Of a DNA stretch of 64,000 bases, positions 5,180 to 39,856 are shown piece after piece. A program made the position numbers and the translations under genes. Position 1 is the first letter of the stretch. Each line of letters opens with the position of its first letter. The notes beneath the pieces are model-generated. The model saw nothing but the letters and a program-made list of their open reading frames with translations, had not been told where the DNA came from and did no database searches. Source of the DNA: Candidatus Wallbacteria bacterium (GTDB lineage: Bacteria > Muiribacteriota > UBA9980); NCBI GenBank assembly GCA_041441465.1, contig JASDSY010000032.1, positions 72 through 64,071 on the forward strand, written 5' to 3'.

Positions 5180-8100
5180 ATGAGTTTAAATCCTGTAAAA
5201 TTTGGTAAGGATGTAATTGATCAATTCGGGCGTTATTTAAGAAACAGTTTTCCGATAGCTGATGAAAATATAGCGGCCCAGTTTAATGAAAAATTGCGAT
5301 ATTCAAGCGACAGCCTGATAGCTAAAGGTCCCTACATATACTTAAATAAGCCTTTTATCGAAGGAAAATCACTTTCTGACCTCATTAACGAAATTGGACT
5401 GCACCGCAACATAAAAGATATATTCAAATTTCCTTCAATGCATTCTCATCAGGAAAAAGCTGCCAGATTAGTCATTAAAGATAAAAAGAACATAATAATT
5501 TCGACGGGCACCGGCTCAGGAAAGACCGAAAGCTTCCTTCTGCCGGTTGTTGATTATTGCTTGAAAGCCATCGATAATAATGAAAACAAAGGATTAATGG
5601 CTGTAATTGTATATCCTATGAACGCGCTTGTAAATGACCAGCTTGAAAGACTGCGCCCGCTTCTTGCCGGCACCGGCATCACATTCGCCCGCTATACAGG
5701 CGAAACCCCCCAGAACGAAACAGGCGTTGAAAGGCTTGAACAGAAAAGAGGATACACTGAAAAAGAACTCAGCGATTTTTACGACAATAAGGCTGATCTT
5801 CCGATACCATACGAGGAGTGCTATTCGCGCGATGAGATCGTGAAAAAACGGCCGAATATATTGTTGACAAATTACAGCCAGCTTGAATACCTTCTTTTAA
5901 GAGATAAAGACCTTGACATATTTACCGGTAAGTCGCTTAAATACCTTGTCCTTGATGAAGTGCATACTTATACGGGCGAACTTGGCAGTGAAATGGCTTG
6001 CCTTTTAAGGCGGATAAAATCGCTGATGCGCGAGAATATAACGTGTATAGGAACATCGGCGACAGTCGCCGGAGATGGCAGCGGCGCTGAGGTGATTAAA
6101 AAATTCGCGGCAGGGCTTTTTGGCGAAAAGAAAGAAAGTTTTGAGGTTATAGAAGAGGAATACAAGGAATCTATATCTAAAAAACATAAGTCATATATTT
6201 CTAAAATTCCCGCAACTCCAGAATTATTATTAATTCAAATTCTCGATGAAGTGAAATCGCTTTATTTGCAAGCTGAAATTGATGAAATAACTCCTGAACT
6301 TTTGCGTTTGGGCGAAAAATTAACAGGCAGTCCGGCGGCTTCTGCCGGCGGCAAAAACATTGATAAACTTGGTGAGTTGCTTGTAAAAAGCGATTACATA
6401 AATTTAATTGAGGATTTTTTTTCAAAACCGTCTTTGCCTTCCGAAGTATTTCCGGCGCTGAAAAATACGGAATGTCGAAAATTATCGGCTGACAATGAGC
6501 TCGAAGCTGAATTATTGTCTTATTTAATACTTGGCGCTGTCGGTCGGTTTGAAAATGAACCGGTGATCAGGCCTAAGCTCCATTATTTCATAAGGGGCGC
6601 CGGCGGGGCTAAATGCACGGTAAATAACGAAAATGAACTCAAATTGTTTTTTGATAATAGTTATGATAAGGAGAAATACGCTTTTTCATTCAAAGTCTGC
6701 CGTGACTGCGGCCAGCATTTTTTTGACGTAGTCACCGAAGCTGATCCTTTAAATGAAGACGGCATAGGCGTTTATCAAATTTTACGCAACCGAAAAGACG
6801 GCGAGCAAATTTTAGGCGATGAAAAATCATGGTATATTACCAATAAATTAAACGAATTGGATGAAAACTCAGAAAGCGGTATTCCTGTATATTTATGTTC
6901 AAGCTGCGGCGCGGTCCATCTCAAGAAAACTGAAGTTTGCATGAAACCTAAATGCAGAAAAAGAGGCGCTATTGTTAAAATGGCGCTTTTTGAGGGTGAT
7001 ATAAAGTATTGCCCTTCCTGTTCAACTTCGATAATGCGCGGCAGTTATAACATGATATCCGAAATAAGGAGTGTCGAAGTTTCTGATGTCATGATTATCG
7101 GACAGTCAATGCTTTCTGCTATGCCTGAAAAGGAACTGCAAAAATTATTAATTTTTGCCGACAGCCGCCAGGACGCCGCGTTTCAGGCCGCGTGGATGAA
7201 TATGCGTTCCAAACGGTTTAATATGAGGTACCTGAATTATACGGCGATTAAAAATTTTAAAAGCGAATTTGATAATGCAATATCATTTGATAAAATGGTT
7301 TCGCTGCTTACTGATGAGGCTTTTAACGCCGGCATTTATAAGGATTCCGGTTTTAATAAAGAGGCCGTAAATAAAAAAATAAAGTGGTTTTTGATCGATG
7401 AATATGTATCGACACGCCAGAAATCCAATCTGGAGCGAATCGGGCTTGTAAGCGTCGTTTATTACGGCTTGAACGAAAATTACGAGGGTGACGCGTTTAT
7501 AAAGGAATGGGCGCAAAAATTAAGGGTTACTGAAGAAAAAGTCATAAATACGATAACTTTAATGTTAAATTACCTTAGAAAGCGCGGCGCGGTAAATGAT
7601 GAACTTGCCAGACGTCTCTGGAGCTATACTGATTCGGAAGTGCGCGACGGAATCATTCCTTTGATCGATGAATATAGGCCAGGCGCTTTTGTTTTAGAAA
7701 AAAACGAGGCGTTAAAGGACAAAGGCTATGTTAAAGGACTTATTTCTTCAAACGGCCGGTCGGGCGTCGAAGTAATATACAAAAAATCATTTCCAGGATC
7801 GCTTGCCTCGCGTGAATTTTTAGAAAATTTATGGGAATATTTAAAGGATAAAAATATAATCTGCGAATCGCGGCTGATTGTTAAAAAATATGGTAAATTC
7901 GAGGAATTGATAAAAAAATCCAGTAAAAAGCTATATCAGATTAATAAGGACGTTATAGGATTTAAAAGCGCTCAAAAAATATACAGATGCTGCACATGCC
8001 GCGAAATTTTTAATGTAATGCCTGAAAATATGAAGTGCATGAATTATAACTGTAAGGGCAGCGTCGTTGAAAGCGCGCTTGATACTGAAAATTATGATAT

Positions 8101-19884: not shown

Positions 19885-21069
19885 TTGAAAAATCATCTTG
19901 AAACCTGTTTTATTTTAACTCAGTTTAATGTATATTCGAATTCTAAAGTTAATTTTAATTTGCTTTCGAATTATTTCGGCGATGCGGCAAACCTTGCTTG
20001 CGGCCGGATGATAAAATCTCCTGAAACGGAACATGATAAAGCTGTTATTGAATGGCTTTTAAAGCGGCTCGAGACCGTGAGGCCGGCAGCCGGCGAGCGT
20101 GAAAAAGCCATGTCGGCTTATGAAAATTACAGCCGTCGAATTTTAAATAATATAGGTAAAGATGTTTTTGTCGGTGCGATAACGATATTTGACGATAACT
20201 ATCCCGCGATTTTAAGGGAAATTCCAGCTCCGCCGCTTGTTATATATGCAGCCGGGGCCGGGTATGACAGGAATGCCGACAGCCTGGCTGTGGTCGGAAC
20301 GCGTAAACCTTCGACTTATGCTCTGGGACAATGCAAGAAATTTTGCGGCGAACTTTCTGAATTGAAAATAAATATAGTTTCAGGCCTTGCGGCCGGCATC
20401 GATTCGTGCGCGCATAAGGCCGCTCTGGACGGGGATAATACGACATTCGCCGTTTTAGGAAGCGGGTTTGACATAATTTTTCCGCCTTCGAATCTGTCGC
20501 TTTATGAAAATATAATAAAAAACGGCGCCGTAATTTCCGAATATCTGCCTGGCTCTGCACCTGCGAAATATACGTTTATTTTTAGAAACAGGATAATTTC
20601 AGGGCTCTCTAAAGGAGTTCTTGTGGCGGCGGCCGGCGAAAAATCAGGCGCGTTAATAACTGCAAAATATGCTTCCGAACAAAACCGGGAGGTTTTTTCA
20701 TTGTGCGGCGATATGACTCGCGGGGACTTTGGCGGCTGTCATAACATTATAAAAAATCATAATGCAAAATTAGTTACGAATATTGCCGATATATTAGATG
20801 AAGTGGATTTTAAGGCAGCTTCTAAAATTTTGAAAAAAAATAAAAAAATAGCGGACCTGTCTGCGCTGAATGCGGATGAAAATTTGGTATATAAGGTTAT
20901 AAACTCGCTCGAAAAAAAATTTGAGGGCGGGCAGGCGCCGATAGATAATATTTTCGAAGAAATAAACGGTCGGTTGGATAATTCGGCCGTGCTTGTTATT
21001 TTAAGCAAACTTGAAATAGAAGGTTTTATAAATACATTTTTTGGAAAGAGGTACGAAACCGTAAAATGA
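19885..21069 (+). CDS. dprA: DNA processing protein DprA (Smf)
   Basis: AVVGTRKPS.YA, SGLAAGIDSCAHKAAL, TFAVLGSGFD..FP, FRNRIISGLS..VLV.AAG.KSGALITAKYA.EQNREVF. The TTG start is uncertain. Confidence 0.85.
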   Translation: MKNHLETCFILTQFNVYSNSKVNFNLLSNYFGDAANLACGRMIKSPETEHDKAVIEWLLKRLETVRPAAGEREKAMSAYENYSRRILNNIGKDVFVGAITIFDDNYPAILREIPAPPLVIYAAGAGYDRNADSLAVVGTRKPSTYALGQCKKFCGELSELKINIVSGLAAGIDSCAHKAALDGDNTTFAVLGSGFDIIFPPSNLSLYENIIKNGAVISEYLPGSAPAKYTFIFRNRIISGLSKGVLVAAAGEKSGALITAKYASEQNREVFSLCGDMTRGDFGGCHNIIKNHNAKLVTNIADILDEVDFKAASKILKKNKKIADLSALNADENLVYKVINSLEKKFEGGQAPIDNIFEEINGRLDNSAVLVILSKLEIEGFINTFFGKRYETVK

Positions 21070-21545
21070 GTGATAGAATCGGCGAAATTTTTGTTAAGAT
21101 AATGCAGGGAATGCTTGATCACGAAGGTGAATTCAAAAAAGTACAGAAATCGCTTTTAAAAGAAGGCTATTCTTTTAATGAGATCGAAGCCGCTTGTGAA
21201 TGGTATTTCAGCGAACTAAGCGGCGCTGGTTCTGATTCCGAGAATGGTGAAACTGGTCCTGTTATGATGGCCGATCCGGCTTGCGAAAGCGTCAGAATGT
21301 TTACGCTTGACGAAGAAACTCTGCTTTCGATAGAAGCGCGCGGGTTCCTTATGGAAATGCTTCATTTCGGTGGCGTAACGGTCCATGAAATCGAGCGTTT
21401 AATTGAGACATTAAAGCAGTATGCCATCGAGGACGCGCCGGTTGAAATTGTAAAACAGCTTATGGAAGAGTTCCGGATGATCGATATACCGCAAAAAGAC
21501 GGCAGCGAGGACAATGTCGATTTCAGGATAAAATATATGCAATAA
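21066..21545 (+). CDS. smg: Smg protein (DUF494)
   Basis: ATGA overlap with the dprA stop. Size (159 aa), the VRMFT.EE...L..EARGFL..L motif, and the classic smf-smg-topA context all fit. Confidence 0.7.
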   Translation: MSDRIGEIFVKIMQGMLDHEGEFKKVQKSLLKEGYSFNEIEAACEWYFSELSGAGSDSENGETGPVMMADPACESVRMFTLDEETLLSIEARGFLMEMLHFGGVTVHEIERLIETLKQYAIEDAPVEIVKQLMEEFRMIDIPQKDGSEDNVDFRIKYMQ

Positions 21546-21600
21546 TCGGAGCAGGGCTTTTAGGAAATAATAACTGGCAGAGCAATGCTTCAGGCTGGTA

Positions 21601-21620
21601 TTGCGCGTTATAACGCGCAA
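21601..21620. promoter_or_regulatory. Perfect 20-bp palindrome upstream of topA
   Basis: TTGCGCGTTA|TAACGCGCAA, between smg (ends 21545) and topA (starts 21692/21710). Confidence 0.4.
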
Positions 21621-21691
21621 ATAAGCTGACAGAGTATAACCTGATTTTTTATGAAATTTGAGCAATAAAAAAATTATAGATAAATTTAATT

Positions 21692-24151
21692 TTGGGCGGG
21701 GGAATTCTAGTGCGCAAAAGCGTTGGTAAAAGTCTTATAATAGTTGAGTCACCTGGAAAAATTAAGACTATAAAAAAAATACTTGGCTCCAATTTCGAAG
21801 TTAAGGCTTCGATGGGGCACGTTATAGACCTTCCGACGAGGACCCTCGGGGTTAATAAAAAGAAGAATTTCGAGCCCGAATATGAAGTCATACCTAAAAA
21901 AGATAAGGTAATAGAAGAGTTAAAGCGTGAAGTGGAAAAGGTCGAGAATGTATTTCTTGCTCCCGACCCTGACCGTGAAGGAGAGGCAATTGCATGGCAT
22001 CTGGCGCGCGCGCTAAACCTTAACCTTGACTCTTATAACCGTGTCACGTTTAATTCGATCACGCCGAAAGCGGTCAGCGAAGCTATTGAAAATCCGACTA
22101 AAATAAATATCGACAAGGTAAATGCTCAGCAGGGCCGCCGTATTCTGGACCGCCTCGTGGGTTACGAACTGTCGCCTCTTTTATGGCGTAAGCTTCAAAA
22201 AGGCCTGTCAGCTGGACGTGTTCAGTCTGTCGCCGTGCTTTTGGTTTGCCAGCGCGAGGAAGAGATAGCGAAATTCATTAAAGAAGAATATTGGCTGATT
22301 GACGGTATTTTCCAGAAAAAAACAGCGGAGTCGTTTAAATCGCAGCTTATAAGGTTTAAAGGGAAAAAGCCGAAAATTACGAATTCTGCCGAAGCCGGAG
22401 AAATCGTCGAAGCGTGCCGCAGTCTTGAGTATAAAGTACTGAAAACGATTAACAGGGAAAAGTTAAAAAGGCCGCCGGCGCCGTTTATCACTTCGACATT
22501 GCAGCAGGAATGCTCGCGTTATCTGAATTTTGCGCCGAACCGCACGATGAAGGTAGCGCAGAAATTATACGAAGGCGTAGAAATAGAAAAAGGCAATGTT
22601 GTCGGTTTGATAACATATATGCGTACGGATTCGTACCGCGTTGTGCCTGAAGCCATAGCGGAAGCGCGCGAATTTATAAAAAATAACTACGGCAAGGAAT
22701 ACGTTCCGGCCAAAGAACGATTCTTTAAAACCAAGGCTGCTGCGCAGGACGCTCATGAAGCTATAAGGCCGACCGATATAAAGAATACGCCCGAAAAGAT
22801 GAAAGCGCACCTTACCAACGATGAATACAGGCTTTATAATATGATATGGAAGCGCTATGTCGCGTCGCAATCGGCTGATGCGGTATTTGACAGCGTAGCA
22901 GTCGAGCTGGGAAATGACCAGGTTATATTTAAAAGTATCGGCGAAACCCTAAAATTTCCGGGGTTTTTGACTCTTTATGATATTTCGGTCGAGGACGAGA
23001 AGGAAAAGAAAAACGAAGAAACCGAAAATGATGAAGAGGGCGAAATTTTTAACGGTCGTCTTCCTAAATTGACTGAAGGCGAAGTTCTTTCGATGAAAGA
23101 AATAATTCCTGAGCAAAAGTTCACTAAGGAGCCGCCGCGCTATTCGACGGCTACTCTCATAAAAACCCTCGAAGAGCTTAAGATAGGACGCCCGTCTACT
23201 TACGCGACCATCGTGAATACGATATTAGACCGTAATTATGTCGAGATCAAAGAGAAGAAATTTTTTGCCACCGATATTGGAATTGCGGCGTCAGTGCTTT
23301 TGAAAGGCTATTTTAACGATCTTATAAATGTCGAATTTACGGCTAAAATGGAAGAAGAACTCGATAAAATCGAAGAGGGTCAGAAAGATTGGCACGAGGT
23401 CCTTTCGGAATTCTATTCGCCTTTTTCGGAAAAGATATCGTATGCTGATAAAAATTTGAAAAGGCTTAATGTAATGACTGACTGCTCTTGCGAGAAGTGC
23501 AAGAGCCCAATGACAGTTGTATTTTCTGAAAAAGGAAGATTTCTTGCCTGCTCGAAATATCCAAATTGCCGCTCTACCAGGAATATTCCAAATGATTTTG
23601 TGATATTCGAAAAGGGTATTTTCGACATTAAGGAGCCGAAAATAGTCATTAACGAGCGGTTGACCGCCTATGAGAAGCAGAATCAGGTCGTAAGGGAAAC
23701 CGCCGAGCAGACCGTTATGGGTAAATGCGAAAAATGCGGCAAGGATATGGTGCTAAAAAAAGGGCCTTACGGAGAATTTATGGCATGCAGCGGTTATCCG
23801 GCATGCCGCAATGCCAAGCCGATAAAAAAAGATATCGGTATTAATTGCCCCAAGGACGGCTGCGCCGGCAAGATAATGGTCAGGAAATCAAAAAAGGGCC
23901 GGATTTTTTATTCATGTACGGAATATCCGAAGTGCGATTTTGTTTCATGGGACAGGCCGACCGGCGAAAATTGTCCTGAATGCGGCAGTTTCCTGATTGT
24001 TAAGGTTTCGAAAAAAGGCGATAAGACCGCCTGCTCGAACAAGGAATGCTCGTATAAGCCTGATGAAAAATCGGATAACGGTGAGAGTGAAGATACGCCT
24101 AAAACGCGGAAGAAAAAATCTGAAGAAGTTACCGAATTATCTGAATATTAA
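21692..24151 (+). CDS. topA: DNA topoisomerase I
   Basis: TOPRIM domain: LIIVESPGK, APDPDREGEAI. Also GRRILDRLVGY.LSP.LW and the active-site region ITYMRTDS. Four C-terminal C4 zinc ribbons. Alternative GTG start at 21710. Confidence 0.95.
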   Translation: MGGGILVRKSVGKSLIIVESPGKIKTIKKILGSNFEVKASMGHVIDLPTRTLGVNKKKNFEPEYEVIPKKDKVIEELKREVEKVENVFLAPDPDREGEAIAWHLARALNLNLDSYNRVTFNSITPKAVSEAIENPTKINIDKVNAQQGRRILDRLVGYELSPLLWRKLQKGLSAGRVQSVAVLLVCQREEEIAKFIKEEYWLIDGIFQKKTAESFKSQLIRFKGKKPKITNSAEAGEIVEACRSLEYKVLKTINREKLKRPPAPFITSTLQQECSRYLNFAPNRTMKVAQKLYEGVEIEKGNVVGLITYMRTDSYRVVPEAIAEAREFIKNNYGKEYVPAKERFFKTKAAAQDAHEAIRPTDIKNTPEKMKAHLTNDEYRLYNMIWKRYVASQSADAVFDSVAVELGNDQVIFKSIGETLKFPGFLTLYDISVEDEKEKKNEETENDEEGEIFNGRLPKLTEGEVLSMKEIIPEQKFTKEPPRYSTATLIKTLEELKIGRPSTYATIVNTILDRNYVEIKEKKFFATDIGIAASVLLKGYFNDLINVEFTAKMEEELDKIEEGQKDWHEVLSEFYSPFSEKISYADKNLKRLNVMTDCSCEKCKSPMTVVFSEKGRFLACSKYPNCRSTRNIPNDFVIFEKGIFDIKEPKIVINERLTAYEKQNQVVRETAEQTVMGKCEKCGKDMVLKKGPYGEFMACSGYPACRNAKPIKKDIGINCPKDGCAGKIMVRKSKKGRIFYSCTEYPKCDFVSWDRPTGENCPECGSFLIVKVSKKGDKTACSNKECSYKPDEKSDNGESEDTPKTRKKKSEEVTELSEY

Positions 24152-24355
24152 ATGCTATTTTAATTTTGGCGTTTAATTAGAGATACTATTTTATAAGTTG
24201 TTTGAATTTAATAAATATATAAGCATATTGAAAATTTAGATTATCTTTTGAAATTTTATTGTATAAGAAGAAAAATAATATATTTTTATTGTTTTTGGGT
24301 TTGTTTCTGCCAAAATCAGGATACTATGTAGTTATAGAAAGACAGAATATTTTAA

Positions 24356-25801
24356 ATGAGTGGAAGAAAAATGAATATTCCCGTGGTTCATGTTATAGGC
24401 GGCGGATTGAGCGGTTGTGAATGCGCGCTCACTCTTGCCGCTTATGGTTTTAAAGTCAATATTTACGAGAAACGTCCGGCAAGCGGCGATGAGGTTTTTA
24501 AAACCGATAATCTCTGTGAGCTGGTTTGTTCGAATTCGCTCGGATCGGTTAAGCCGGATACTGCGCCTGGAATTTTAAAAGCTGAACTTGAAGAATTGGG
24601 TTCGTTCGTCCTTCGCGCGGCCAGGGCTGCGGCGGTTCCCGGCGGTCAGGCGCTTTGTGTCGATCGCGATAAATTTTCACAAAATATAAAAAATGAAATT
24701 TCGAGGTTCCCGAATATTGAAGTTATCCGGAAAGAAATCTTATCTTTTGACGATTTCGGTAAAAGTGACTTAGTTGTTATGGCGAGCGGACCGTTGACTT
24801 CGGCAAAGCTTTTTGAAAGCCTTTCGGAAAAATTTAAGGCCGAGCTTTATTTTTATGACGCGGTGTCGCCGATAATCGCCGCCGATTCGATCGATATGGC
24901 GAAGGCATTCTGGCAGAACCGATATCAGCGCGGTACGCCCGATTATTTGAATATAGCGCTGAACAAAGAAGAATATTTGAGATTTTACGAGGCTCTGATA
25001 GGCGCCGAAACTGTTCCTTCGCATGAAAACGAGAAAGAGATTTTCTTCGAAGGCTGCATGCCGATAGAGGAATTAGCGCGCCGAGGCACGCACACTTTGA
25101 GGTTCGGCCCGATGAAGCCTAAGGGAATAATAGACCCTCAGAATCCAGATAAGATGCCGTATGCCGTTTTGCAGCTGAGAACGGAAAATAATATGCATTC
25201 CGCCTTTAATCTTGTGGGTTTTCAGACCAAGATGAAATTTGGCGAGCAAAAGCGCGTTTTTTCAATGATACCTGGGCTTGAAAATATAAAAATACTAAGA
25301 TACGGCGTGATTCATAAGAATAATTACATCTATTCGCCCGGCGCCGTTAATTTTGACTTGAGCCTGAAAAATTCTGAAAATATTTATGTTGCGGGCCAGC
25401 TCCTCGGTTCTGAAGGTTATACTGAAGCGATAGCGACCGGAAAAATTGCGGCCCTGAATATAATTTTAAAATATCTTGTTCCGGCAGGGTTTGCCGGCGA
25501 ATATAAAACCTTAAAACGCTCTGTAATAGGGGCCGTGAAAAGCGAAGAATTTAGCGCCGGTGAGGTTAATGACAAAAATATTGTTTCAGTGCTTGATCTG
25601 ATTGAATACGAAAAAACTATGGCCGGGTCGCTTGTTAAGTATATAACTAAGAGCGAGGTAAAACCGAAAAAATTCGTTCCGATGAATTCAAACTTCGGTA
25701 TTATCGATATGAAAATTGCAGGGAGCCGTGAAGGATTCCCTGAAGTTTCAAAATCTGAAATCTGCAAAATAAAGGATTTTTTGGCTAAAATCGCTGGTTA
25801 A
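24356..25801 (+). CDS. trmFO: Methylenetetrahydrofolate--tRNA-(uracil-5-)-methyltransferase TrmFO
   Basis: VIGGGLSGCECA (FAD-binding), LCELVCSNSL, ALCVDR..F, FFEGCMPIE, LRFGPMKP, FQTKMK..EQ.RVF..IPGLE, AGQL.G.EGY.E. Confidence 0.9.
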   Translation: MSGRKMNIPVVHVIGGGLSGCECALTLAAYGFKVNIYEKRPASGDEVFKTDNLCELVCSNSLGSVKPDTAPGILKAELEELGSFVLRAARAAAVPGGQALCVDRDKFSQNIKNEISRFPNIEVIRKEILSFDDFGKSDLVVMASGPLTSAKLFESLSEKFKAELYFYDAVSPIIAADSIDMAKAFWQNRYQRGTPDYLNIALNKEEYLRFYEALIGAETVPSHENEKEIFFEGCMPIEELARRGTHTLRFGPMKPKGIIDPQNPDKMPYAVLQLRTENNMHSAFNLVGFQTKMKFGEQKRVFSMIPGLENIKILRYGVIHKNNYIYSPGAVNFDLSLKNSENIYVAGQLLGSEGYTEAIATGKIAALNIILKYLVPAGFAGEYKTLKRSVIGAVKSEEFSAGEVNDKNIVSVLDLIEYEKTMAGSLVKYITKSEVKPKKFVPMNSNFGIIDMKIAGSREGFPEVSKSEICKIKDFLAKIAG

Positions 25802-26117: not shown

Positions 26118-26387
26118 ACTTAGAATTTAAAATAGTAATAAGCTCAAATAGCCCCGAAAAAGCGTATAATGCGCCAAACGGGCTTATTGTGTTTTCAAAA
26201 AGTAAAAAAGGTAACCGGTCCTAAAAATTTTTGAAAAGTCTTGAGAATTTGAAAATTATTATTAATCCGTACTTAAATTAAAAACTGAATATTCTTTTTT
26301 TTAGCCCTGCTTTGAAGCGTTTCAGAGTAGGGTTGTCGTGTTTAATACTTTAAAGTATTTTTATTTTTATGTAAGGAGTTGTCGTTA

Positions 26388-29300
26388 ATGCCAAGGGTAA
26401 TAACAAACAACACAACCGGCCAGGAAAAGCTTAATTTCGGCAGTGGTGATTACATCCTCGATATGCCGAATTTGATCGACATTCAGCTGGCTTCATACCG
26501 TGAATTTTTACAGGCGCACCGTGCGCCGCTAAACCGTCTGCGTCAGGGTCTTCAGGAAATATTTCTCGATGTATTTCCTATACAGGACTTTACCGGCAAT
26601 TTGATTCTTGAGTTTGTAGAATACAAGCTTGGTCTCGGCCGCTGCAAAGACTGCCCTGATACAAAAGGCACAAAAGTTAAGGAATGCAGTTATTATGACT
26701 GCCCTCACGCTAAAGAACGCGAGTGCACTTTCGCTACAATCGACGGCGTTCCGTATAGAATCAAATATGATCCTAACGAATGTAAAAAAAGAGATGTTAC
26801 CTATGGCGTTTCCCTTTCGATCATCATCCGCCTTATCAATAAAAATTCCGGTGAAGTGAAAGAACAGGAAATATTTTTAGCTAACCTTCCGTGCATGACC
26901 CAGCGCGGAACATTCATAATAAACGGTGCTGAACGTGTTGTCGTATCGCAGCTCCACCGTTCGCCTGGCACATATTACAAATATGATAAGCTGAAAAAAC
27001 AGTATCTTGCCAAAATAATTCCGTACCGCGGCGCATGGCTCGAATTCGAACTCGATGTTATGAAAGATACTATACATGTCAGAATTGACCGCAAAAGAAA
27101 ACAGCCCGTTACCGTTCTTTTTAAAGCAATGGGTTTCTCCGCTGAAGAACTGGGCGAACTTTTCAATAAGAGCGAATATATCGAAAACACTTTAAAATAT
27201 GATAAAACAAAGAGCAATTCAGAAGCGCTCGCCGATATTTATTCAAAAATACGTCCCGGCGAACCATTTATCGAAGAAAATGCGCTCAACCTTTTGAATG
27301 GATTATTCTTCGATCCGCGCAAATATGATCTTGCGGATGTAGGCCGTTACAAACTTAACAATAAATTGCGCATACGCGAACGTATTATAGGAAATACTCT
27401 CGGCGAAACATTACACAACAAAGAAACCGGAAAAGCTTGCGGTAAATCAGGCGAAATAATAACACGCGAAATGGCCGACGCTATTGAAGTTAGCGGCTGC
27501 GAAAAAGTTAAACTCCTTACCGGAGACGGCGAAATTCTTGAAGTTTTCAACGAAATCGACTTCGAGGAAATAATATTCCGCGATAAGGAAGCTTTCAGAA
27601 AGGCTTTGATAGGCAAAACTCTCGGCGAAACAATTATGGATCCGAAAACTAACGCCATACTTTATGAGCCTAAAACGACAATTACGCCTGATATAGCTTC
27701 AAAATTAAATAAATTAAAATTACAAACAATAAAAATCATAACTTCGGACGGCACTCTTACGGCTATCGCAAGAACGCAGTATGAAATGCTTTCATTCGAA
27801 GAAGAAGAACTTCTTAAAAAGAAAATTATCGGCCGTGAAATTGTACGCGAAATCAAAATAACCGATCCGGCTACGAAACAGAGCACTAAAATAGCTCCTG
27901 GAACGATTTTGACCAAGGAACTTTTCGCTTCGATAAAAGACGCGAAGTGCGAATCTATATTCGTAAAAAAAGGCCGCATTCTCACCAAATCTGATATTAT
28001 CTCGGTAGTCCGCTATTTAATCGATCTTTGCAACGGCCTCGGCCATGTGGACGATATCGACCATCTCGGCAACAGGCGCGTTAGAAGAGTAGGCGAATTG
28101 CTGCAAAACCAGTTCAGAATGAGCCTTATCAGAATGGAACGCGACATAAAAGAAAGAATGACAATTCAGGATTCGGCGACAATATCATCGCAGAGCCTTA
28201 TAAATGCCCGCCCTGTGGCCGCAATGATCAAAGACTTCTTTGGAACATCGCAGTTGTCGCAATTTATGGACCAGACAAACCCGCTTTCGGAACTTACCCA
28301 CAAACGCCGTATATCCGCCCTTGGACCTGGCGGCGTAAGAAGGGAAAGAGCCGGTTACGAAGTCCGCGACGTGCATCCTACTCACTACGGAAGAATATGC
28401 CCGATCGAAACACCTGAAGGACCGAACGCCGGTCTTATAAGCTCGCTTGCGATCTACTCCAATATAAATGAATATGGGTTCATTGAAACTCCGTTCAGAA
28501 AAGCCGAAAAAGGCAAACTTTCACGCGATGTAAAATACCTCGATGCTTATGAGGAAGACGAATATAAAGTTTGCCCTTCAGACATCAGCTATTGCTATGA
28601 CAAGCAGAAAAAATACGAAGTGATCGACGATAAAATCGTTTCGGCAAAATATAAAAGAGACGAAGAATATGAATTTTCGTACATCAATTCGAGCGAAGCG
28701 GACTTAATTCAAATATCGCCGCTTCAGATGGTATCTGTCGCTACCGCGTTGATTCCGTTCCTTGAAAATGACGACGCTAACCGTGCATTGATGGGTACGA
28801 ACATGCAGCGTCAAGCTGTGCCTCTTTTAAAAACCGAATCACCGTGCGTAGGCACCGGCCTCGAGCATAAAGTCGCTAAAGACTCTGGCGTTATGGTAGT
28901 TTCAAACTGCGACGGCGTTGTAAAAAGCGTTGACGCGAACAGGGTGATTATTGAAAAAACCCGTAAAATGTTCTGGGAAGGCATAAGCGACCATATTTTG
29001 AAAGAACCTATTTTCAAAACTGGCAGCAAGGAAATACTTTACGACGTAAACACTTTCATCGACGAAAAAATGGCCCGTGAAATCGACGAAAAAATGCCGC
29101 AGGTTAAATCGGTAAGAGTATCGACAAGAGACGGCGAAGTAGTTTATGTCAACCGCAGCGACTATCAGGACAAAAGAGCATATTACGAAACTTATGAACT
29201 CTTGAAATATAAACGTTCCAACCAGGGAACATGCATCAATCAGAAAGTCCTCGTAAAAGAAGGACAGAAAATCAAAAAAGGTGACGTGCTCGCTGACGGT

Positions 29301-31256
29301 CCGGCAACATGCGGCGGCGAACTCTCGCTTGGCAGAAACGTTCTCGGCGTATTTATGCCTTGGGAAGGGTACAACTTCGAAGACGCTATATTGTTATCGG
29401 AAAGACTTGTAAGGGACGATGTTTATACTTCGATACATATTGAAGAATATGAAATCGAAACACGCGATACGCGTCTTGGACCTGAAGAAATTACAAGAGA
29501 TATCCCGAACATTTCATCTGAAGCGCTCCGCAATCTCGACGAAGAAGGTATCGTAAGAATAGGCGCCGAAGTTGAATCAGGCGATATCCTCGTGGGTAAG
29601 GTTACTCCTAAAGGCGAAACCGAACTTACCGCCGAAGATAAACTTTTGCGCGCAATATTTGGTGAAAAAGCCCGTGAAGTAAGAAACACCTCATATACGG
29701 TTCCTCACGGTGAAGGCGGAAAGATCGTCGATGTTATAACATTCACACGTGAAAATAAAGACGAATTGCCTCACGGCGTTAATAAACTCGTAAGGGTTTA
29801 TATCGCTCAGAAACGTAAAATAACCGAAGGCGATAAGATGGCAGGAAGACATGGTAACAAGGGTGTTATCGCTAAAATACTGCCTGAAAAAGATATGCCG
29901 TATTTGAAGAACGGCACGCCTGTTGATATAGTTCTTAACCCGCTCGGCGTTCCTTCCCGTATGAATCTCGGACAGGTTCTTGAAACATATCTCGGCTTGA
30001 TTTACAGGGAGCTTGGTTTCAGATTTGAAGTACCTATATTTGAAAGCGCCTCGGAACTTGAAATAAGAGCCGGCCTTTCACTGCAGAGAATTCTCGAACA
30101 CGAAAGATTAAACTTATATAATCTTAACGAGAAAAAATGCTTCGGTTATTTGAAATTCGAAACGCTTGCTATTCAGGACATAATAAACAATTTTATCTCT
30201 AACATACAGAGCGAATATGACCACAACAAAAAAGAAGGTCTTCTTGGTCTTAACGCCCCAAGCATAAAATATTATCTTGAAACTTTAAAGTATTTGCTTT
30301 CAAAATATCAGGCTGTAGTTTATGACGCAGGCACAAACTTACCTGTCGGTATGACCAAAAAGTTAAGCGAAAAAGAATTGGATAAAATTCTTATGCCTAT
30401 CATGCCTTCAGAAAAATCGACAAAGAAAGTTGTTACTCCGTATTTTGATTTGTCAAAGTTAATAGATTATACTGAAAAAGTTGAATTCAAAAACAGCCAT
30501 CTTGAAATTGCGTACTATGTAGATGCAGTTGCAGGTGAAAATGGTGAAGTCGGCTATGCTAAAGTTGACGATAAAGCTAAATTCCCAAGACCTGAGACTG
30601 TTATTGAATCGCTGAAATCGAAGAATATAATCGCTGAATTCCAGAAAATGGCTGCGGTAACTGACCTGGTAGAGGTAGAAGACGGAAAGCAGACAATATA
30701 TGACGGCAGAACCGGCGAGCCTTTTGATAACAAAGTAACCGTAGGACAAATGTACATAATGAAACTCGCGCACTTAGTTGATGATAAGATACATGCCCGT
30801 GCTACAGGTCCGTACTCGCTCGTTACGCAGCAGCCTCTTGGCGGTAAAGCTCAATTCGGCGGTCAGCGTTTTGGTGAAATGGAAGTTTGGGCCCTCGAAG
30901 CTTACGGTGCAGCTCATATATTGCAGGAATTATTGACTGTAAAATCGGACGACGTTGAAGGCCGTGTCGAAGTTTATGGAGCAATAATAAAAGGCGAAAA
31001 TGTTATCACCCCTAAAGTTCCGGAATCATTTAAAGTTCTTGTGTCGGAATTGCAGAGCCTTGGCTTAAAGATTGAATTGAAGAAGGATAATACTTCCGTT
31101 CAGTTAAAAACAGAAGCTGAAGTAAAATTGCTTACTGACGAACAGCCTGCAGCTTCACAAAGATTCGGTGTCGAAGAAAATCTCGACGATTCCGAAGATG
31201 ATTTAGAAGATGATATCGATAACGGAACTGAAGAAGAACCTGAAACTGAAAAATAA
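26388..31256 (+). CDS. rpoB: DNA-directed RNA polymerase beta subunit, expanded by several lineage-specific insertions
   Basis: The ATG at 26388 (AAGGAG 9 nt upstream) is preferred over the TTG at 26379. Conserved blocks: [160 protein letters not shown]. Confidence 0.97.
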
Positions 31257-31373: not shown

Positions 31374-34300
31374 TTGTGGGACGTAGATAAATTTGATGCC
31401 ATACAAATTATGGTGGCTTCGCCTGAAGATGTTAGAGGTTGGTCATGGGGTGAAGTTAAAAAACCTGAAACCATAAATTACAGAACACATAAACCTGAAC
31501 GTGACGGTTTATTTTGCGAAGTAATATTCGGGCCTACACGCGACTACACTTGCTCATGCGGTAAGTATAAAAGCATCAGATATAAAGGCATAAAATGCGA
31601 ACGCTGCGCAGTTGAAATCACAGAATCGAAAGTTCGTCGTGAAAGAATGGGTCATATCGAGCTGGCTGCACCGGTGGCGCATGTTTGGTACGCTAAAGGC
31701 ACGCCTTCGTATATAGCTTTATTGCTTGATATTTCACCTAAAGACCTCGAAAAAGTTCTTTACTTTAATTCATACATAGTAATTAATCCTGGTAATTTGC
31801 CTTTAAATGAAAAACAGCTTTTGACCGAAAAAGAATTCCGGCAATATTCCGATAAGTACGGCAATCTTTTTGACGCGAAAATGGGCGCTGAAGCTATCGC
31901 TGAGTTGCTCGAAAAAATCGATCTTCAGAAGCTTGTATTGGATTTAAAATCAAAATTACAGGAAAAATCAAACTTTAAAAAACATAACATAATAAAAAGA
32001 CTCGAAGTTGCTGAAACGTTTTTGAATTCAGGCTGTAAGCCGCAGTGGATGATTATGCGCTATGTTCCGGTTATTCCGCCGGATTTGCGCCCTATGGTCC
32101 AGCTCGACGGCGGCCGTTTCGCTACGTCAGATTTGAACGACCTTTACAGGCGCGTTATTAACAGAAATAATCGTCTTAAAAAACTTATCGATATGGGCGC
32201 TCCTGACATAATTATTAAAAACGAAAAAAGAATGCTTCAGGAAGCTGTAAATTCATTGATCGATAACGGCAGGCGCGGCAGACCTGTTACAGGCCCTGGC
32301 AAACGTCCGCTCAAATCATTGAATGATATGTTAAAAGGTAAACAGGGCCGTTTTAGACAGAACCTCCTTGGTAAACGTGTCGACTACTCAGGCCGTTCGG
32401 TTATCGTTGTCGGACCGAGCCTTAAAGTTCATCAGTGCGGTCTTCCTAAAAAGATGGCGCTTGAATTGTTTAAACCTTTTATAATGAATAAGCTCGTTAC
32501 AAAAGGTCTTGCTCATAATATCAAGAGCGCTAAAAAGATGCTTGAACGCGGTAAGGCTGAAATATGGGATTTACTCGATGAAGTGGTAAGAGACCATCCG
32601 GTTTTATTGAACCGCGCTCCTACACTTCACAGGCTTGGTATTCAGGCATTCGAGCCGATCCTCGTAGAAGGAAAAGCGATACAGATTCCGCCTCTGGTAT
32701 GTACTCCGTTTAACGCTGACTTCGACGGTGACCAGATGGCTGTTCACGTGCCGCTTTTAATAGAAGCCCAGACAGAAGCCAGACTTTTAATGTTGAGCGC
32801 TCATAATTTGTTCTCGCCTGCTTCAGGTAAACCGATTATGAACCCTACACATGATATGACACTCGGCTGCTATTACTTGACCAGAATTTTACACCCTGTA
32901 AATACAAGAATAGTAAAAGAATTTACATGCTCGAAAACAAATAAAAAAATCACTCTGGAAGAACAGCTGCTTCCTGAAAAACAAAAATATAACTTTAAGA
33001 TTGCTGTCGATGTTTTTGATAAAGCAGGTAAAAACGTTATAAAAAAATATACTCCGATCAATAAATATTTAATGTCTAAAATTAAAGAACTCGGACTTAA
33101 AGAAGTAGAAATTTTCGAACAAAAAATTTATGCTTCAGCCGAAGAAGCTATTCATGCTTATGAGCAGAGGGTAGCGGACCTTCATACTGAAAATATCGTC
33201 AGAATCGGTGAAAAATATATCGAAACAAGCATAGGCAGGCTTATATTCAATCAGCTGCTTCCGAAAGAATTGGGATTTGTCAATAAACAGATTAACAAAA
33301 ACAGCCTTTCGAGCCTTGTTACATCGACATATCAAAACTGCGGCCTTGGCCGTACAGCCAGACTTCTCGATGAAATAAAAGAAATGGGCTTTAAATTTGC
33401 CACAAAATCAGGCCTTTCATTCTCGATTGCGGATCTTTTGATTCCTAACAGAAAACCTGAAATAGTTCTGGCAGCACGTAAAAAAGCAGCCGATCTTGGC
33501 AACAAGCTCGAACTCGGCGCTATTACACGCGAAGAAAAAAGACAGAACGATATCGATATCTGGCAGGGCGTAACAGCTGAAGTTACCGATGAAATGATTC
33601 AGGAGTTCCAGCGCCGTGACCAGGATGGCGAGTTTAACTCAGTTTATATGATGGCTATATCCGGCGCGCGCGGTTCAATGCAGCAGGTTCGTCAGCTCTG
33701 CGGTATGCGCGGTCTTATGTCGAATCCGCAAGGCGACGTTATAGATTATCCTATTATATCGAATTTCCGCGATGGATTGACACAGACAGAATATTTTATA
33801 TCGACATACGGCGCTCGTAAAGGTCTCGTTGATACAGCTTTGAGAACAGCTGACTCCGGTTACCTTACAAGAAGGCTCGTTGACGTTGCACAGGACGTAA
33901 TTGTGCGCGAACACGATTGCGGCGCAACGGAAGGTATATTTATTATGCCTCTCCGCGAAAAACGTAAATCAAATAACCTTATCGCTAATGAAATATTGAT
34001 TCCGCTCAGCACCCGTATTAACGGCCGTACAACAATAGCCGATATTGTTCACCCTGAAACAGGCGACATACTCGTTCATAAAGGCGAAGAAATATCCGCT
34101 GAAATGGCTCGTAAAATCGAACACGCTGAGTCGATAATCGAAATCGATACAAAAAATGCCGAAAGAGCTCTTGGATTGGTTGCGACGGAAAACGTTATAG
34201 ATGAGAAAACGGATAAGATATTGCTTAAGAGCGATTGCATAATCGATAACGTAACTTTAGAACATTTGAGAAATTATCGTGTAAGAAGAGTTAAAGTACG

Positions 34301-37300
34301 TCCGGCAGTTTATGTCCGTTCGCCGCTTACATGCAAGAGCAAACAGGGTATCTGTCAGAAATGCTACGGTAATGACCTTTCGACTGGAAAAATGGTTGAG
34401 CTTGGTGAAACGGCCGGAATTATCGCGGCACAGTCAATTGGTGAGCCTGGTACGCAGCTTACAATGAGAACATTCCATATAGGCGGTATCGCGTTGGCTC
34501 AAAAGATAGAAATCAGAAGCAACGTCGAAGGTGAAATCAATGTCGACGGCTTGAAATGGACATATAAAGTCGACCGTAAAAAACAGGCAATCGGCGGTAT
34601 CGATACCGACGGCAAAGAAACACCGGATATCGAAGAAGACTTAAGACGTATTGTTCTTGACGGTTATGTCGTTGTTATCAAAAAAGACGGCAAAAAAGAC
34701 TATTATAACATTCCGCCGGGCGCGTTCTTGAACCCTAAAGTCGCTAATGGCGAAAAAGTTGGTATCGGCGACGTGCTTTGCGAATACAACCCAAATCAGG
34801 TTGTTACACAGTTCAGCGGTAAAATAAAATTCAATAACCTTCTTGTTAAAGACGGTATCATAGTTTCAACTGACGGTAACATTATTCTTGAAAAAGAAGA
34901 GGGCGGTCTCGAATCATATAAAATTCCGCTCGGTTCATATTTAAGAGTAGAAAATGGCGACAAAGTTGAAGCTGGTTACATTATAGCCGAAAAAATAGCC
35001 GAACAGAAAGCTGCTATAGCCGGTATAAACGGTCAGGTTGAATTCTTTGATATAAAGATTAAAAACCAGAAAGTTATATCTGATAATGGCATAATATTTA
35101 TCTCGCCGCTTGATGAAAAAGAAAGCGTTCGTGAGAAAAAATATACGCTTCCTCAGGGCGTTAAAGAATTCAAAGAAGAGTCAAACGCTAAATACGGCGT
35201 TGAGCTTAAGGTTCGTTCCGGTAATGAAATTAAACGCAATGAAGAAATTCTTGCAATAACTTCCGAAATCGAAGGCGAAGTCAGCTTGAAAAACGGCGGC
35301 AAAGTTATTCAGGTTAAGAAAGACGCGCAAAAAGAATACTTTGTTCCGGCTGAAATTAAATTCGACGAAAGAAAAATTGATGATAAGATAAATACTATAA
35401 CTCTTATCTCAGAAACAGCAGGTCTTGCAAGGGTTGTTCAGCCTAAGGGCGCTTCTTCGAAAACTATCGATACACGCCGCATAATCATAACTGATGAATG
35501 CGAATATGAAATACCTCAGGATGCGAACTTAGTCGAGAGCAAGTTGAAAGTAAAACCCGGTTCAAATGTATCAGTTGATGAATTAATTTGCGAAGAAATT
35601 CAGTTTAAGGCAAATACAGACGGTGAAGTTGAAGTTAAGACTGAAGAACGGGCAATTGATTCGGAAGTATATGAAATCGGCTCGCTTGAAAGACCTATGC
35701 AGCAGAAAAAGATTGAACGTTATAATAAAGTCGTAATTCGTGAAGTTCGTGAATTGCCTTTAAAAGACGTCAACATAAGTTTAAAAGAAAAAGTTGTCGA
35801 TAAGGTTCTGGCTTCGCCTGTAATCGACTTAAGAACTAAAGAGATAGTCGTAAAAGAAGGCGAACGCATGACTGCTGAATTAGCTGATAAACTTTTCAAA
35901 GTTTCACCTATCGGCGGCTATGTAAAAGTCGAAAATGATTCGCCTGTTTTAAATCTTGACATTCAGACATTGAAAAAATATGTCGGTCAGAAAATAACAC
36001 GCGATATCAAAAATAAAAAGACAAAAGAAGTCTTATTCCATGCTGAAACAGTTATTGATAATAAAATGATTGTTGAAATTGACAAGATTCATACTGAAAT
36101 TACGCCTATGTATGTTCCAGCTGAACAAATCGTAGTTTCAAATGAGATAGTTGTTGCATTGAGAGATACCGCTGCTATACGTGAAAAACTTGTCGGAAAA
36201 ATTGCTAAGAGCGATATCATCTCATCGGAAACTTCAGAATTGATCTGCTCTGCTAAAACTGTAATAACGGATGAAATCAGAAATAAAATCCTTAATGACC
36301 ACACTATAAAAAGAGTGGAATTAATAGATTACAAGATTATCGAAGTTCCTGAAGGCGCATCTATAAAGGTAAAAGATGGTTCTCAGATTAAGGCCGGCAC
36401 AGAATTGATCTGCCCGACACATCTTGACAGAATCAGAGTTATTAATCATGTTGAGGAATATGAGCTTCCGACTAACATAAAATTGCTTGTAAAAACTGGC
36501 GATATTATAAAGACTGGCGATGAATTCGCTGAAGCTATTCCGTCTATAAAATCAAAAATTGCTGGTAAAGTTAACTATATAATGAAATACAGCAAGAAAG
36601 TAAATGATGAAGTTGTCAGAAAGATCATTATTTACTCGGGTAAAGAATATGAAATTCCTGACGGTCTTCAGATAAAAATCAAAAATGGCGAAAAAGTTGA
36701 GGCTAATACTCCGTTAACCGAGCCAATCGAATTTGAAGGCAAGATTGAATATACCGAAGATAAACGTTTCTATAAGTTTGTAAAACCTGAGAAAAACGAG
36801 AAAAAATATAAAATTACCGCAGATATGTTGTTACATGTTAATGAAGGTGATTTTGTAAAAGAAGGCGACAAACTTGCTTCGTTAATCAATGATAAATTCA
36901 GTCATGAAAAGGAATACAGCGAAAAGATCACTGTAACAAGCAGGAATATAGCTCAGCTTCGTTATTATCCGGTAATTCCTGATTCGTTAGAAATAAAAGT
37001 TTCGGGTAAAAAACATGATTATTTCAAACATATTGACCTTCTGAAATTAAAATCAGAAAAAGATATATTGGGATACAGGATTAATAAGACGCTTGTAAAC
37101 AATACAGACGGTGAAGTTGTAATTGAATATGACCGTGTAATTGATGAAGAAACGGCAAAGAAGATACATCTTAACGCCGCAAATCTCAATGAGACAAATG
37201 TAAAAATATACATTCCGGACATAACGATTAACTTTAACCTCGGTGAAATTCACTTTGAAAAGAGAATTGCCGAAGAAATAGAAGTTAATTACAAATATGA

Positions 37301-38363
37301 CGTAACCGGCGTTGTAAAATTAATAAAACGTAAAGATAAAGAAGGCAAAGAACGCACTACGATAGCGAATGTAGTCATTCAAATGGGCGAAGCGCATCAA
37401 ATTCTTGACGGCGCTGAACTTAAAGTCGAAGACGGCGCTACTGTAAAAACCGGTGATATACTTGCAAAATGGGGTTCTTCAGGAAAGAAAACGATCGATA
37501 TTATTCAGGGTTTGCCTCGTGTCGCCGAACTTTTCGAAGCAAGACGTCCTAAAAAAGAAGCTATTATAGCTGAATACGACGGTATTGCTAAACGCGCAGG
37601 AAACTCCTTGATCATCGAAAGTTTCTCTGGTGAAAGAAAACAATATAAGAGCCAGTTTGGTACAATATCAAACTTCCTTGTATTTGACGGCGAACTTGTA
37701 AAAGCAGGCGATCCGTTGACGGAAGGTAACGTTGCTCCTAAGAAGCTTCGTAAAATTGCCGGTGTTGAACGTACAATGCGCTATATCATAGATGAAATAC
37801 AGCACGTGTATAAGGGGCAGGGCGTTCAAATCAATGATAAACATATAGAAGTTATCATCCGCCAAATGTTTAGAAAAGTAAAAATATTACATCCTGGCGA
37901 AACAAGATTCTTGCCTCGTGAAATTGTTACCGTAAATGATTTCTATATTGAAAATGATAGAATTATGGCTCTAGGCGGCAACGGCGCTGAAGGTGAACAG
38001 ATATTGCAGGGTATCACAAAAGCGTCATTGACAACAGATTCATTCTTCTCGGCAGCATCGTTCCAGGAAACCACAAGAGTTCTTACTCAAGCTTCGGTTC
38101 AGGGTAAAGTTGACTATCTGCGCGGACTTAAAGAAAATATCATCATTGGTAAACTTATACCGGCCGGAACTGGAATCGCGGCATACAGAAAAGTTCATTT
38201 GCCGGCATTTGATAGGCGCGGTATTGCAAAACCAGGGCTGTCATTAACTCAAGTTAAGGATATAATGAGTGAAGACGAAGCAAGGGTAACGGCCGCTGAT
38301 CATGCTGCTGATGTAACTGAAATGGGAATGGATTCATCAGCGGGTGATGAGTTGAATAACTAA
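31374..38363 (+). CDS. rpoC: DNA-directed RNA polymerase beta-prime subunit, 2329 aa, with ~1000-aa trigger-loop insertion
   Basis: TTG start with AAGGAGGA 7 nt upstream. Conserved blocks: zinc site CSCGKY...[59 protein letters not shown], catalytic [64 protein letters not shown] (nt ~34441-34490), [12 protein letters not shown] (nt ~37507), [35 protein letters not shown]. Confidence 0.97.
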
Positions 38364-38526
38364 TTTTTACTGCATGAATAACTGTCAGATTAAAAATTTA
38401 GAAAATAGTATTTAGAATTTTTTAACTTTGACGGTTGATTAAGTAAAATTTTAGTGCTATACTTAAAAATGTCAAACTAAGTAACAAAATCAATATAAAA
38501 AATATTGATATAAAAGTAAAAACATA

Positions 38527-38611: not shown

Positions 38612-39856
38612 ATGGCAATTTTCAAACCTTTTAAAGGATATCATCCGGACAGTAAAAATGCGGCTGAGGTTATTTGTCTTCCATACGATGTTATTAACTC
38701 ACAGGAAGCCCGCGAATTGGCAAAGGGAAAACCAAACAGTTTTCTTCACGTTGATAAATCGGAAATTGACCTCGATCCTGGTATTAATTTATATGACCAA
38801 AAAGTTTATGATAAAGCAAGTGAAAATTTAAAAAAACTTATGACTGGAAAAGTATTAATTCAGGACTCTAAGCCTTGCTTTTACATATATAAGCAAATAA
38901 TGGACGGCAGAACGCAGATAGGGCTTGTCGGATGTGCTTCAGCCGAAGAATACTGGAAAAATATTATAAAAAAACACGAATTAACCAGAAAAGATAAGGA
39001 AGACGATAGAACTAAGCATGTCGATGTATGCAATGCCAATACAGGTATGGTATTTTTAACATACCGCGCTCAAAAAAGCATTAATGATATGCTCGACGGT
39101 GTAATGAAAAATACTCCGATATTTGACGTTACTACTGAAGATAATGTTAAGCATATTTTATATAAAATTGAAGATGAAAAAATTATTGCTAAACTTCAGG
39201 AAGAATTTAAAAATATTGATTATTTATATATAGCTGACGGCCATCACAGAACAGCTTCGGGCGGCCGAATTGCGCAGGTACGCAAAGAACGTAACAGCAA
39301 GCATACGGGTAATGAAGAATATAATTTTTTCATGGCTGCCGCGTTTCCGCATGATCAGCTTTATATAATGGATTATAACAGGCTGGTAAAAGATTTAAAC
39401 GGCCATAGTTTTGATCAATTCATGGCTGAAATAAGCAAAAAATTCGAAGTAAAAAAGCACGGCAAAACGCCTTTTAAACCTTCAAAAATGCACACTTTCG
39501 GAATGTATATCGGCGGCGACTGGTATGAGCTACATGCTAAATCGCATGTATTTGATCCAAAAGATCCGATTGATTGCCTCGATGTGACTATTCTTCAAAA
39601 AAATGTACTTGATCCGCTTTTAGCTATAAAAGATCCGCGCACTGACAAACGTATTGACTTTGTCGGCGGTATAAGAGGACTTGGAGAATTGCAAAAACTT
39701 GTTGATTCCGATAAGTTTAAAGTGGCATTTGCTATGTTTCCGACAACGATAGAACAGCTGATGGATATTGCCGATGCAGATAAAATAATGCCGCCTAAAT
39801 CGACATGGTTTGAACCTAAGCTTCGCTCGGGTGTTTTAGTTCATACTCTGGAGTAA
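38612..39856 (+). CDS. DUF1015 family protein
   Basis: MAIFKPFKGYHP...CLPYDVI N-terminus, IADGHHRTAS motif, and a 414-aa size typical of DUF1015. Confidence 0.75.
   Translation: MAIFKPFKGYHPDSKNAAEVICLPYDVINSQEARELAKGKPNSFLHVDKSEIDLDPGINLYDQKVYDKASENLKKLMTGKVLIQDSKPCFYIYKQIMDGRTQIGLVGCASAEEYWKNIIKKHELTRKDKEDDRTKHVDVCNANTGMVFLTYRAQKSINDMLDGVMKNTPIFDVTTEDNVKHILYKIEDEKIIAKLQEEFKNIDYLYIADGHHRTASGGRIAQVRKERNSKHTGNEEYNFFMAAAFPHDQLYIMDYNRLVKDLNGHSFDQFMAEISKKFEVKKHGKTPFKPSKMHTFGMYIGGDWYELHAKSHVFDPKDPIDCLDVTILQKNVLDPLLAIKDPRTDKRIDFVGGIRGLGELQKLVDSDKFKVAFAMFPTTIEQLMDIADADKIMPPKSTWFEPKLRSGVLVHTLE

Follow-up and report, generated by a model that had tools for sequence, protein, structure and literature searches.

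Position of the insertion in rpoC

The DNA analysed here, which we call the window, is a stretch of 64,000 nucleotides (nt) from contig JASDSY010000032.1 of a Candidatus Wallbacteria bacterium. Its rpoC gene (31374..38363, on the + strand, as are all features of this gene described below) encodes the beta' subunit of RNA polymerase (RNAP) as a single, unsplit open reading frame (ORF) with a TTG start. The protein of 2329 amino acids (aa) and 262 kDa carries within its trigger loop the 1004-aa insertion that is the subject of this report. Pfam Rpb1 domains 1-5 are all matched in RpoC, domain 5 in split form, the catalytic motif is intact, and no competing ORFs of at least 100 aa were found inside the gene on either strand. 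A near-identical RpoC protein (P0033) is present in Logan assemblies.

Trigger-loop helix 1 is encoded at 34440..34487 (aa 1023-1038) and helix 2 at 37500..37544 (aa 2043-2057); the two helices correspond to conserved region G/G' of beta'. The 3012 nt between them are all in frame and encode the insertion (34488..37499, aa 1039-2042), with a mass of 113 kDa and a pI of 5.8. The same helix motifs are 4 aa apart in the beta' proteins of Negativicutes, the closest core relatives without the insert, and 182-193 aa apart in proteobacterial-type proteins. This spacing bears out the identification of the flanks as trigger-loop helices in an earlier note on this DNA, and the coordinates given there for an in-frame insertion of about 1000 aa turn out to be right to within a few bases. 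The insertion is thereby confirmed to be of the SI3 type (beta'In6), located between the trigger-loop helices of an unsplit beta'.

SBHM and BBM2 modules of the insertion

A strict GD-box-type hairpin pattern matches nine times in the insert and not at all in the remainder of RpoC, whereas shuffled sequences (n = 2000) contain it 0.07 times on average and at most twice. One of the nine matches (aa 1156) is probably an ordinary strand, and the first hairpin of the insert (aa 1125-1137) is missed by the pattern, so that the hairpin count stays at about nine. The earlier note had counted at least nine hairpins and had quoted eight hairpin peptides and two helical repeats. Its count agrees with the strict pattern; two of the peptides and both helical repeats were located by string search, and the other six peptides can be read in the translation, five of them being caught by the motif scan as well. 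At the hairpins, the insert has weak Pfam matches to RPOC_hybrid, Biotin_lipoyl and Peptidase_M23, and it has no strong Pfam domain.

The insert begins with a block of sandwich-barrel hybrid motifs (SBHM/HABAS block A, 34488..35756, aa 1039-1461), in which GD-box hairpins start near aa 1119, 1188, 1278 and 1390. This block is common to the inserts of Riflebacteria-type proteins and is the part of the insert most similar to SI3 of Escherichia coli. Three BBM2/BEAN modules follow: M1 (35757..35939, aa 1462-1522), M2 (35955..36137, aa 1528-1588) and M3 (36159..36353, aa 1596-1660), the last being the sole BBM2 module that is also found in the ~680-aa inserts of the Riflebacteria type. SBHM/HABAS block B (36354..37049, aa 1661-1892) has hairpins starting near aa 1663, 1703, 1766 and 1816, and a fragment of it matches Pfam RPOC_hybrid with E = 4e-8. 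A fourth BBM2/BEAN module, M4 (37050..37223, aa 1893-1950), is missing from some members of the clade. The terminal SBHM segment (37224..37499, aa 1951-2042), whose GD-box hairpin leads back into the trigger loop, is the best conserved portion of the insert, with 0.11 non-synonymous substitutions per site (dN).

The assignment of the four BBM2 modules is based on HHalign comparisons, in which each module, as a family alignment, was compared with the canonical BBM2/BEAN module of beta' (aa 872-916). M1, M2, M3 and M4 reached probabilities of 98.2%, 95.7%, 98.5% and 96.8%, respectively. Other 60-aa slices of RpoC served as controls; over 135 such comparisons, the probability peaked at 67% and had a median of 0.3%. 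All four values exceed 70%, the criterion for BEAN domains in a 2024 survey of RNAP insertional domains (PMC11515920). The secondary structure predicted for M1-M3 (helix-strand-strand and strand-strand-helix) would match the two antiparallel bracket elements (alpha-beta-beta and beta-beta-alpha), and for M3 phmmer gave an alignment with the beta' BBM2 of one PDB chain. In an AlphaFold2 model covering aa 1452-1665, with a predicted local distance difference test score (pLDDT) of 82.1, a unit of helix, short strands and helix appears three times, with long strands joining the units. Foldseek matched this model to the beta lobe with beta-i4 of E. coli (3lti, 7egs_A and many other RNAP beta chains, E ~1e-4) and also to the beta' BEAN of 8i23_D.

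The fold predicted for the entire insert speaks for SBHMs as its other building material. An AlphaFold2 model of aa 1015-2065 is mostly beta, with a mean pLDDT of 81.2 and a predicted template modelling score (pTM) of 0.47. The top Foldseek matches of the whole insert model are to cyanobacterial beta'2/Si3 (9dvs_F, E = 8e-17, and also 8emb, 8gzh and 8syi), followed by E. coli beta' and isolated SI3 (2auk, with a template modelling score of 0.51 on the target) and then by the plastid-encoded polymerase; for cyanobacterial and plastid Si3 together, E ranges from 8e-17 to 1e-11. A profile of the insert matched the SI3 regions of many beta' chains among PDB sequences, and its positions ~66-188 align to residues ~973-1040 of E. 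coli-type beta', inside SI3. It also matched the Thermus beta' SBHM insert, domain II of Thermotoga NusG and the BBM2 regions of beta subunits. The profile was needed for clear matches, as a search of the PDB with the single sequence gave marginal ones (E = 0.0015). No cyanobacterial match was found by phmmer of the insert against PDB sequences, and the profile matched cyanobacterial Si3 in scattered, generic hairpins that are not colinear.

The best explanation of these data is that the insert consists of about nine SBHM/HABAS units together with four BBM2/BEAN modules, three in the center and one near the C-terminal end. The SBHM-like and BBM2-like modules proposed in the earlier note have thus both been recovered, the former by the weak Pfam matches, Foldseek matches to Si3 and SI3 and the PDB profile search, the latter by HHalign with controls and by Foldseek matches to E. 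coli beta-i4.

RpoC has BBM2 modules outside the insertion as well. The canonical pre-trigger-loop BBM2/BEAN of beta', where PDB beta' chains match, lies at 33969..34328 (aa 866-985), and nested in it is a BEAN-like (BBM2) module (34119-34283, aa 916-970) that is lineage-specific relative to Negativicutes. Two other segments are lineage-specific in the same comparison, namely aa 508-583 (window 32895-33122), which resembles BBM2 in HHalign comparisons with three of M1-M4 and with the canonical beta' BBM2, and the acidic C-terminal tail at aa 2289-2329 (window 38238-38360).

Authenticity, conservation and distribution

In metagenome-type sequence, a region with repeated protein motifs, across which the GC content falls from ~0.43 to ~0.34, could stem from an assembly chimera or repeat expansion, with the assembler having stitched 3 kb into rpoC. 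We regard this as practically negligible. Placed on window positions 33800-38400, Logan contigs from different studies cross both junctions colinearly: a contig of 17,380 bp (X1) is identical to the window, another of 5,817 bp (X4), which comes from the metatranscriptome of a separate study, covers the entire interval with 45 substitutions and no gaps, and two contigs of X2 overlap within the insert. Both junctions are therefore spanned without gaps, and the assembly artefact of which the earlier note had warned was not found on the contigs. The same architecture recurs in an independent genome of the GTDB set (L001), in a second, partial genome (L002) and in 16 further protein clusters. The lower GC content agrees with that of the neighbouring genes (0.30-0.37). 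As to repeats, the longest DNA repeat in the region measures 58 nt at 72% identity, and neither near-identical DNA repeats nor a real tandem array were found in the insert region, which indicates that the modules are old and diverged and not the product of recent duplication or assembler expansion.

An apparent joint from 34457 to 38055, which skips 3597 nt, was considered as a deletion variant and rejected, since the contigs in question are rpoC genes of other organisms. Short contigs of the same metagenomes pile up at 34426-34494 and at 38037-38087, where rpoC of other organisms cross-matches the conserved coding stretches for the trigger loop and region H. The runs X4-X7 are labelled metatranscriptomic, which suggests that the whole gene is transcribed, with DNA carry-over as another possible source of the contigs.

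RpoC of L001, also a single ORF, has 2336 aa. Its insert is 71.6% identical to that of the window, with zero gaps at window residues and 5 additional aa, and the N-terminal core is 85% identical; the presence of the same insert in related genomes, which the earlier note had suggested looking for, has thereby been established. Taking this genome and other database proteins together, the identity of the insert is 69-72%. Between the window and L001, dN amounts to 0.20 for the insert, compared with 0.11 for the core. As synonymous sites are saturated (proportion of synonymous differences ~0.8), a ratio of non-synonymous to synonymous rates is not computable for the insert in this comparison, and we used dN and strain variants instead. 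Fourteen of the 40 listed differences between runs fall inside the insert; 11 of these are synonymous and three conservative (I>M, V>I, V>I). Purifying selection acts on the insert, if somewhat less strongly than on the core.

A search with the whole protein yielded 65 clusters of giant beta' proteins, in each of which we delimited the trigger-loop insert. They form two size classes. The long class (17 clusters) has inserts of 963-1044 aa in proteins of 2242-2440 aa, and its few named members are labelled Wallbacteria or Muiribacteriota. The short class (the other 48) has inserts of 666-686 aa in proteins of 1984-2078 aa; those with a name are mostly Riflebacteria and include 'Candidatus Ozemobacter sibiricus'. 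The window insert is typical of the long class, and its closest named relative is a Wallbacteria fragment with 75% identity. With the insert alone, a word-indexed search returned a single close relative, a 778-aa Wallbacteria fragment, and missed the full-length ones, and an exhaustive search of 1.84 billion representatives gave seven matches below 1e-10. Those of full length among the seven are giant beta' proteins from the same clade, and the remainder are short fragments of 127-778 aa. The giant beta' proteins of the clade are already in public databases, where they are annotated simply as beta', and rpoC length filters in marker-gene pipelines may mishandle these phyla. The two size classes are in line with the suggestion in the earlier note that the insert could serve as a lineage marker, and the insert is indeed a clear molecular marker for these candidate phyla.

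The two classes belong together. Riflebacteria-type beta' proteins (~2020 aa, e.g. P0058 of 'Candidatus Ozemobacter sibiricus') are members of the same clade, and their inserts are homologous to the window insert and colinear with it over blocks A and B, M3 and the terminal hairpin. They lack M1, M2, M4, the hairpin at aa 1663 and the segment at aa 1843-1978, leaving eight hairpins and one BBM2 module, the equivalent of M3; in alignments with the short class, additional residues of the window lie at aa 1424-1600, 1658-1683 and 1843-1978. Variation also occurs within the long class. P0040 and P0047 lack M4, and six proteins (P0036, P0038, P0040, P0043, P0047 and P0048) have a fifth BBM2-like module (~60 aa) within their last GD-box hairpin, aligned to window aa ~2020. 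Judging from these sequences, BBM2 modules are gained and lost inside the SBHM scaffold of the clade, and the long form seems to be derived from the ~680-aa form by the addition of BBM2 modules and one hairpin. In one preprint, Wallbacteria and Riflebacteria are grouped together with the diderm Terrabacteria (bioRxiv 10.1101/2021.05.31.446380).

The distribution also bears on the idea that a selfish or foreign element, such as an intein or a fused mobile gene, sits in the trigger loop and is removed or tolerated. Inteins prefer conserved active-site loops, and the size of the insert and its want of a strong Pfam domain would fit. However, the Pfam scan gave no Hint, homing-endonuclease or transposase matches, and all detectable similarity of sequence and fold is to the SBHM and BBM2 modules of RNAP. 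Moreover, inserts of the clade remain colinear with that of the window despite divergence down to 32-40% identity, and the relatives from the exhaustive search are confined to beta' proteins and short fragments. We therefore consider such an element extremely improbable. Taken together, the insertion is real and clade-wide and most probably inherited vertically.

A further protein from the search of representatives, P0157 (2013 aa), is a beta' with a trigger-loop insert of ~738 aa and divergent helix motifs, helix 2 reading ITGGLPKVAELFDAR.

Relation to known insertions, possible role and surroundings

Some algal chloroplast rpoC2 genes contain very large in-frame insertions, and claims about size are therefore limited here to bacteria. 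Cyanobacterial Si3, with 645 aa, has been called the largest known trigger-loop insertion in papers, and the window insert is ~1.5 times as long. The statement of the earlier note that the insertion would be among the largest of its kind holds, although it is not a record in its own clade, which reaches 1044 aa.

Cyanobacterial and plastid Si3 (8emb, 8syi, 8gzg, 9dvs), a long chain of SBHMs in a non-tandem, interdigitated arrangement, occupies the same site in the trigger loop and is the best structural match. The number of units is similar as well, since the nine GD-box hairpins of the window insert come close to the eight SBHMs of Si3 counted by crystallography (PMC10895346) or the nine HABAS domains of another count (PMC11515920). 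Cyanobacterial Si3 has been described as SBHM/HABAS only, whereas the window insert adds BBM2/BEAN modules; the cyanobacterial gene is split into rpoC1 and rpoC2, whereas rpoC of both the window and L001 is one ORF; and the likeness in sequence is limited to the generic, non-colinear hairpin matches mentioned above. SI3 of E. coli (beta'i6, 2auk) shares the insertion point and an acidic overall composition with the window insert, but comprises 188 aa and a tandem pair of SBHMs, where the window insert has 1004 aa, about nine hairpins and four BBM2 modules.

For the BBM2 modules, the nearest known counterparts lie elsewhere in RNAP. Beta-i4 of E. coli (3lti), made up of a pair of BBM2 motifs in tandem (PMC2939025), and the canonical beta' BEAN (beta'-bD5) have profile and predicted fold in common with M1-M4. 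Known BBM2/BEAN insertions are found in the beta lobe and at beta' bD2, bD4, bD5 and bD7, whereas M1-M4 are in the trigger loop. The 2024 survey lists only HABAS insertions for the trigger loop (uD5) and places BEAN insertions at other sites; it has no mention of Wallbacteria, Riflebacteria or Muirbacteria (PMC11515920). In the literature, we found no report of BEAN modules at the trigger-loop site, and a full-text search returned no paper on RNAP insertions in these phyla. The insertion is set apart from the described cases that we found by its size, its mixture of BBM2 and SBHM modules and the unsplit gene.

The role of the two studied insertions suggests a role for this one. As the trigger loop of E. 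coli folds, SI3 changes position, and it modulates pausing, catalysis and the stability of open complexes (PMC4227799, PMC11077087). Cyanobacterial Si3 extends from the secondary channel along the beta lobe to upstream DNA; together with sigma it makes up an arch, and it denies access to Gre and DksA (PMC10120043, PMC10895346). In the window protein, the array runs directly into a trigger helix at either end, and each folding of the loop onto the nucleoside triphosphate would have to displace it. An appendage of 113 kDa would then move with every folding and unfolding of the trigger loop and, as a surface-exposed lever, could tune this folding and with it elongation rate, pausing and intrinsic cleavage. 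The array may run along the exterior of the enzyme and there touch the beta lobe, sigma or NusG; it could also restrict access to the secondary channel, with the run of BBM2 modules serving as the extension arm of an external platform. The effects on pausing, catalysis and factor access that the earlier note expected are likewise inferred. Contact with beta is plausible because RpoB of the same enzyme is itself enlarged and rich in BBM2, and the insertion probably lies against the lobe of this partner subunit.

Overall, we put the probability at roughly 0.85 that this is a genuine, vertically inherited SI3-type insertion of 1004 aa, made of SBHM and BBM2 modules, with a lever or platform role. 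Several points weigh against this interpretation. The lever or platform role, though the most likely one, is drawn by analogy from E. coli SI3 and cyanobacterial Si3 alone. With a pTM of 0.47, the model does not predict the arrangement of the domains or the RNAP surfaces that they reach. The number of SBHMs, which was read from hairpin motifs and a string of predicted secondary structure, could be 8 to 10. The TG[DE] motif of RNAP BBM2/BEAN modules, which appears as ETGD in the canonical module, is degenerate in M1-M3 (TKE, TKE and TSE), and M4 has TDGE at this position. Finally, the insert outpaces the core in non-synonymous change by a factor of ~1.8, which points to weaker constraint.

The faster evolution would also suit a tolerated passenger, that is, a real, folded array without a regulatory role, in which selection maintains no more than solubility and clearance from the folding trigger loop. 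The variation of BBM2 modules between clade members fits this idea, as does the viability of E. coli without SI3, given one suppressor substitution (PMC11077087). Yet the lengths are tight within each class (666-686 and 963-1044 aa in the 65 clusters) and strain-level changes are nearly all synonymous. Roles of SI3 and Si3 are measurable in both experimentally studied systems (PMC4227799, PMC10120043, PMC10895346), and a load of 113 kDa would be costly on an essential, highly expressed enzyme. We consider a passenger quite improbable.

A more far-reaching variant of the lever or platform interpretation is that the BBM2 arm and the enlarged, BBM2-rich beta lobe join up into a closed bridge or arch that spans either the downstream DNA or the secondary channel and would replace or exclude secondary-channel factors such as Gre and DksA, and that the insertion reached its giant size in an unsplit beta' independently of its cyanobacterial counterpart. 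No Gre-like protein was found among the ORFs of the window that were scanned, a scope that leaves out the rest of the genome. At present, we consider this variant rather unlikely. If true, the growth of Si3 would be separated from the split of rpoC, the proposed trade-off between Si3 and Gre would become testable in a second lineage, and the BBM2 arm would make Si3 a new kind of RNAP module.

For cyanobacteria, one paper suggests that the rpoC split and the loss of Gre and DksA are possibly tied to the acquisition of Si3, and the split has been suggested to follow from Si3 growth (PMC10895346). An unsplit beta' with inserts of 670-1040 aa across an uncultured clade bears on this suggestion. 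It also offers a second, independent system to study how the folding of a catalytic loop with every nucleotide addition tolerates, or uses, a load of more than 100 kDa.

The neighbouring rpoB gene (26379..31256, + strand) encodes a beta subunit of 1625 aa and 184 kDa that is enlarged by lineage-specific inserts. RpoB has three tandem BBM2-like repeats (aa ~335-545), a Cys-rich insert of ~45 aa near the N-terminus (aa ~88-135, CKDC...C...C...C), which might bind zinc, and a helical insert of ~200 aa (aa ~1243-1440) that splits Pfam Rpb2_6. The surroundings of rpoBC are atypical, as the usual rplJL and rpsL-rpsG-fusA are not there. Upstream (window 19885-25801) are dprA, a DUF494 (Smg-like) gene, topA and a gene of the GIDA family, and downstream (window 38612-39856) is a DUF1015 gene; the ~415-aa ORF after rpoC is also present in L001 (14012-15259) and L002 (2462-3709). 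Rfam and tRNA scans of the window found no RNA genes.

Farther from rpoC, an MmeI/Eco57I-type restriction-methylase fusion (1342 aa) adjoins a DEAD-box helicase of 1743 aa that has an MrfA Zn-binding (DUF1998) domain (window 26-4054 and 5180-10411), and the two may constitute a DISARM-like defence pair. A small ORF at 43148-43693 matches the transmembrane domain of Pycsar effectors.

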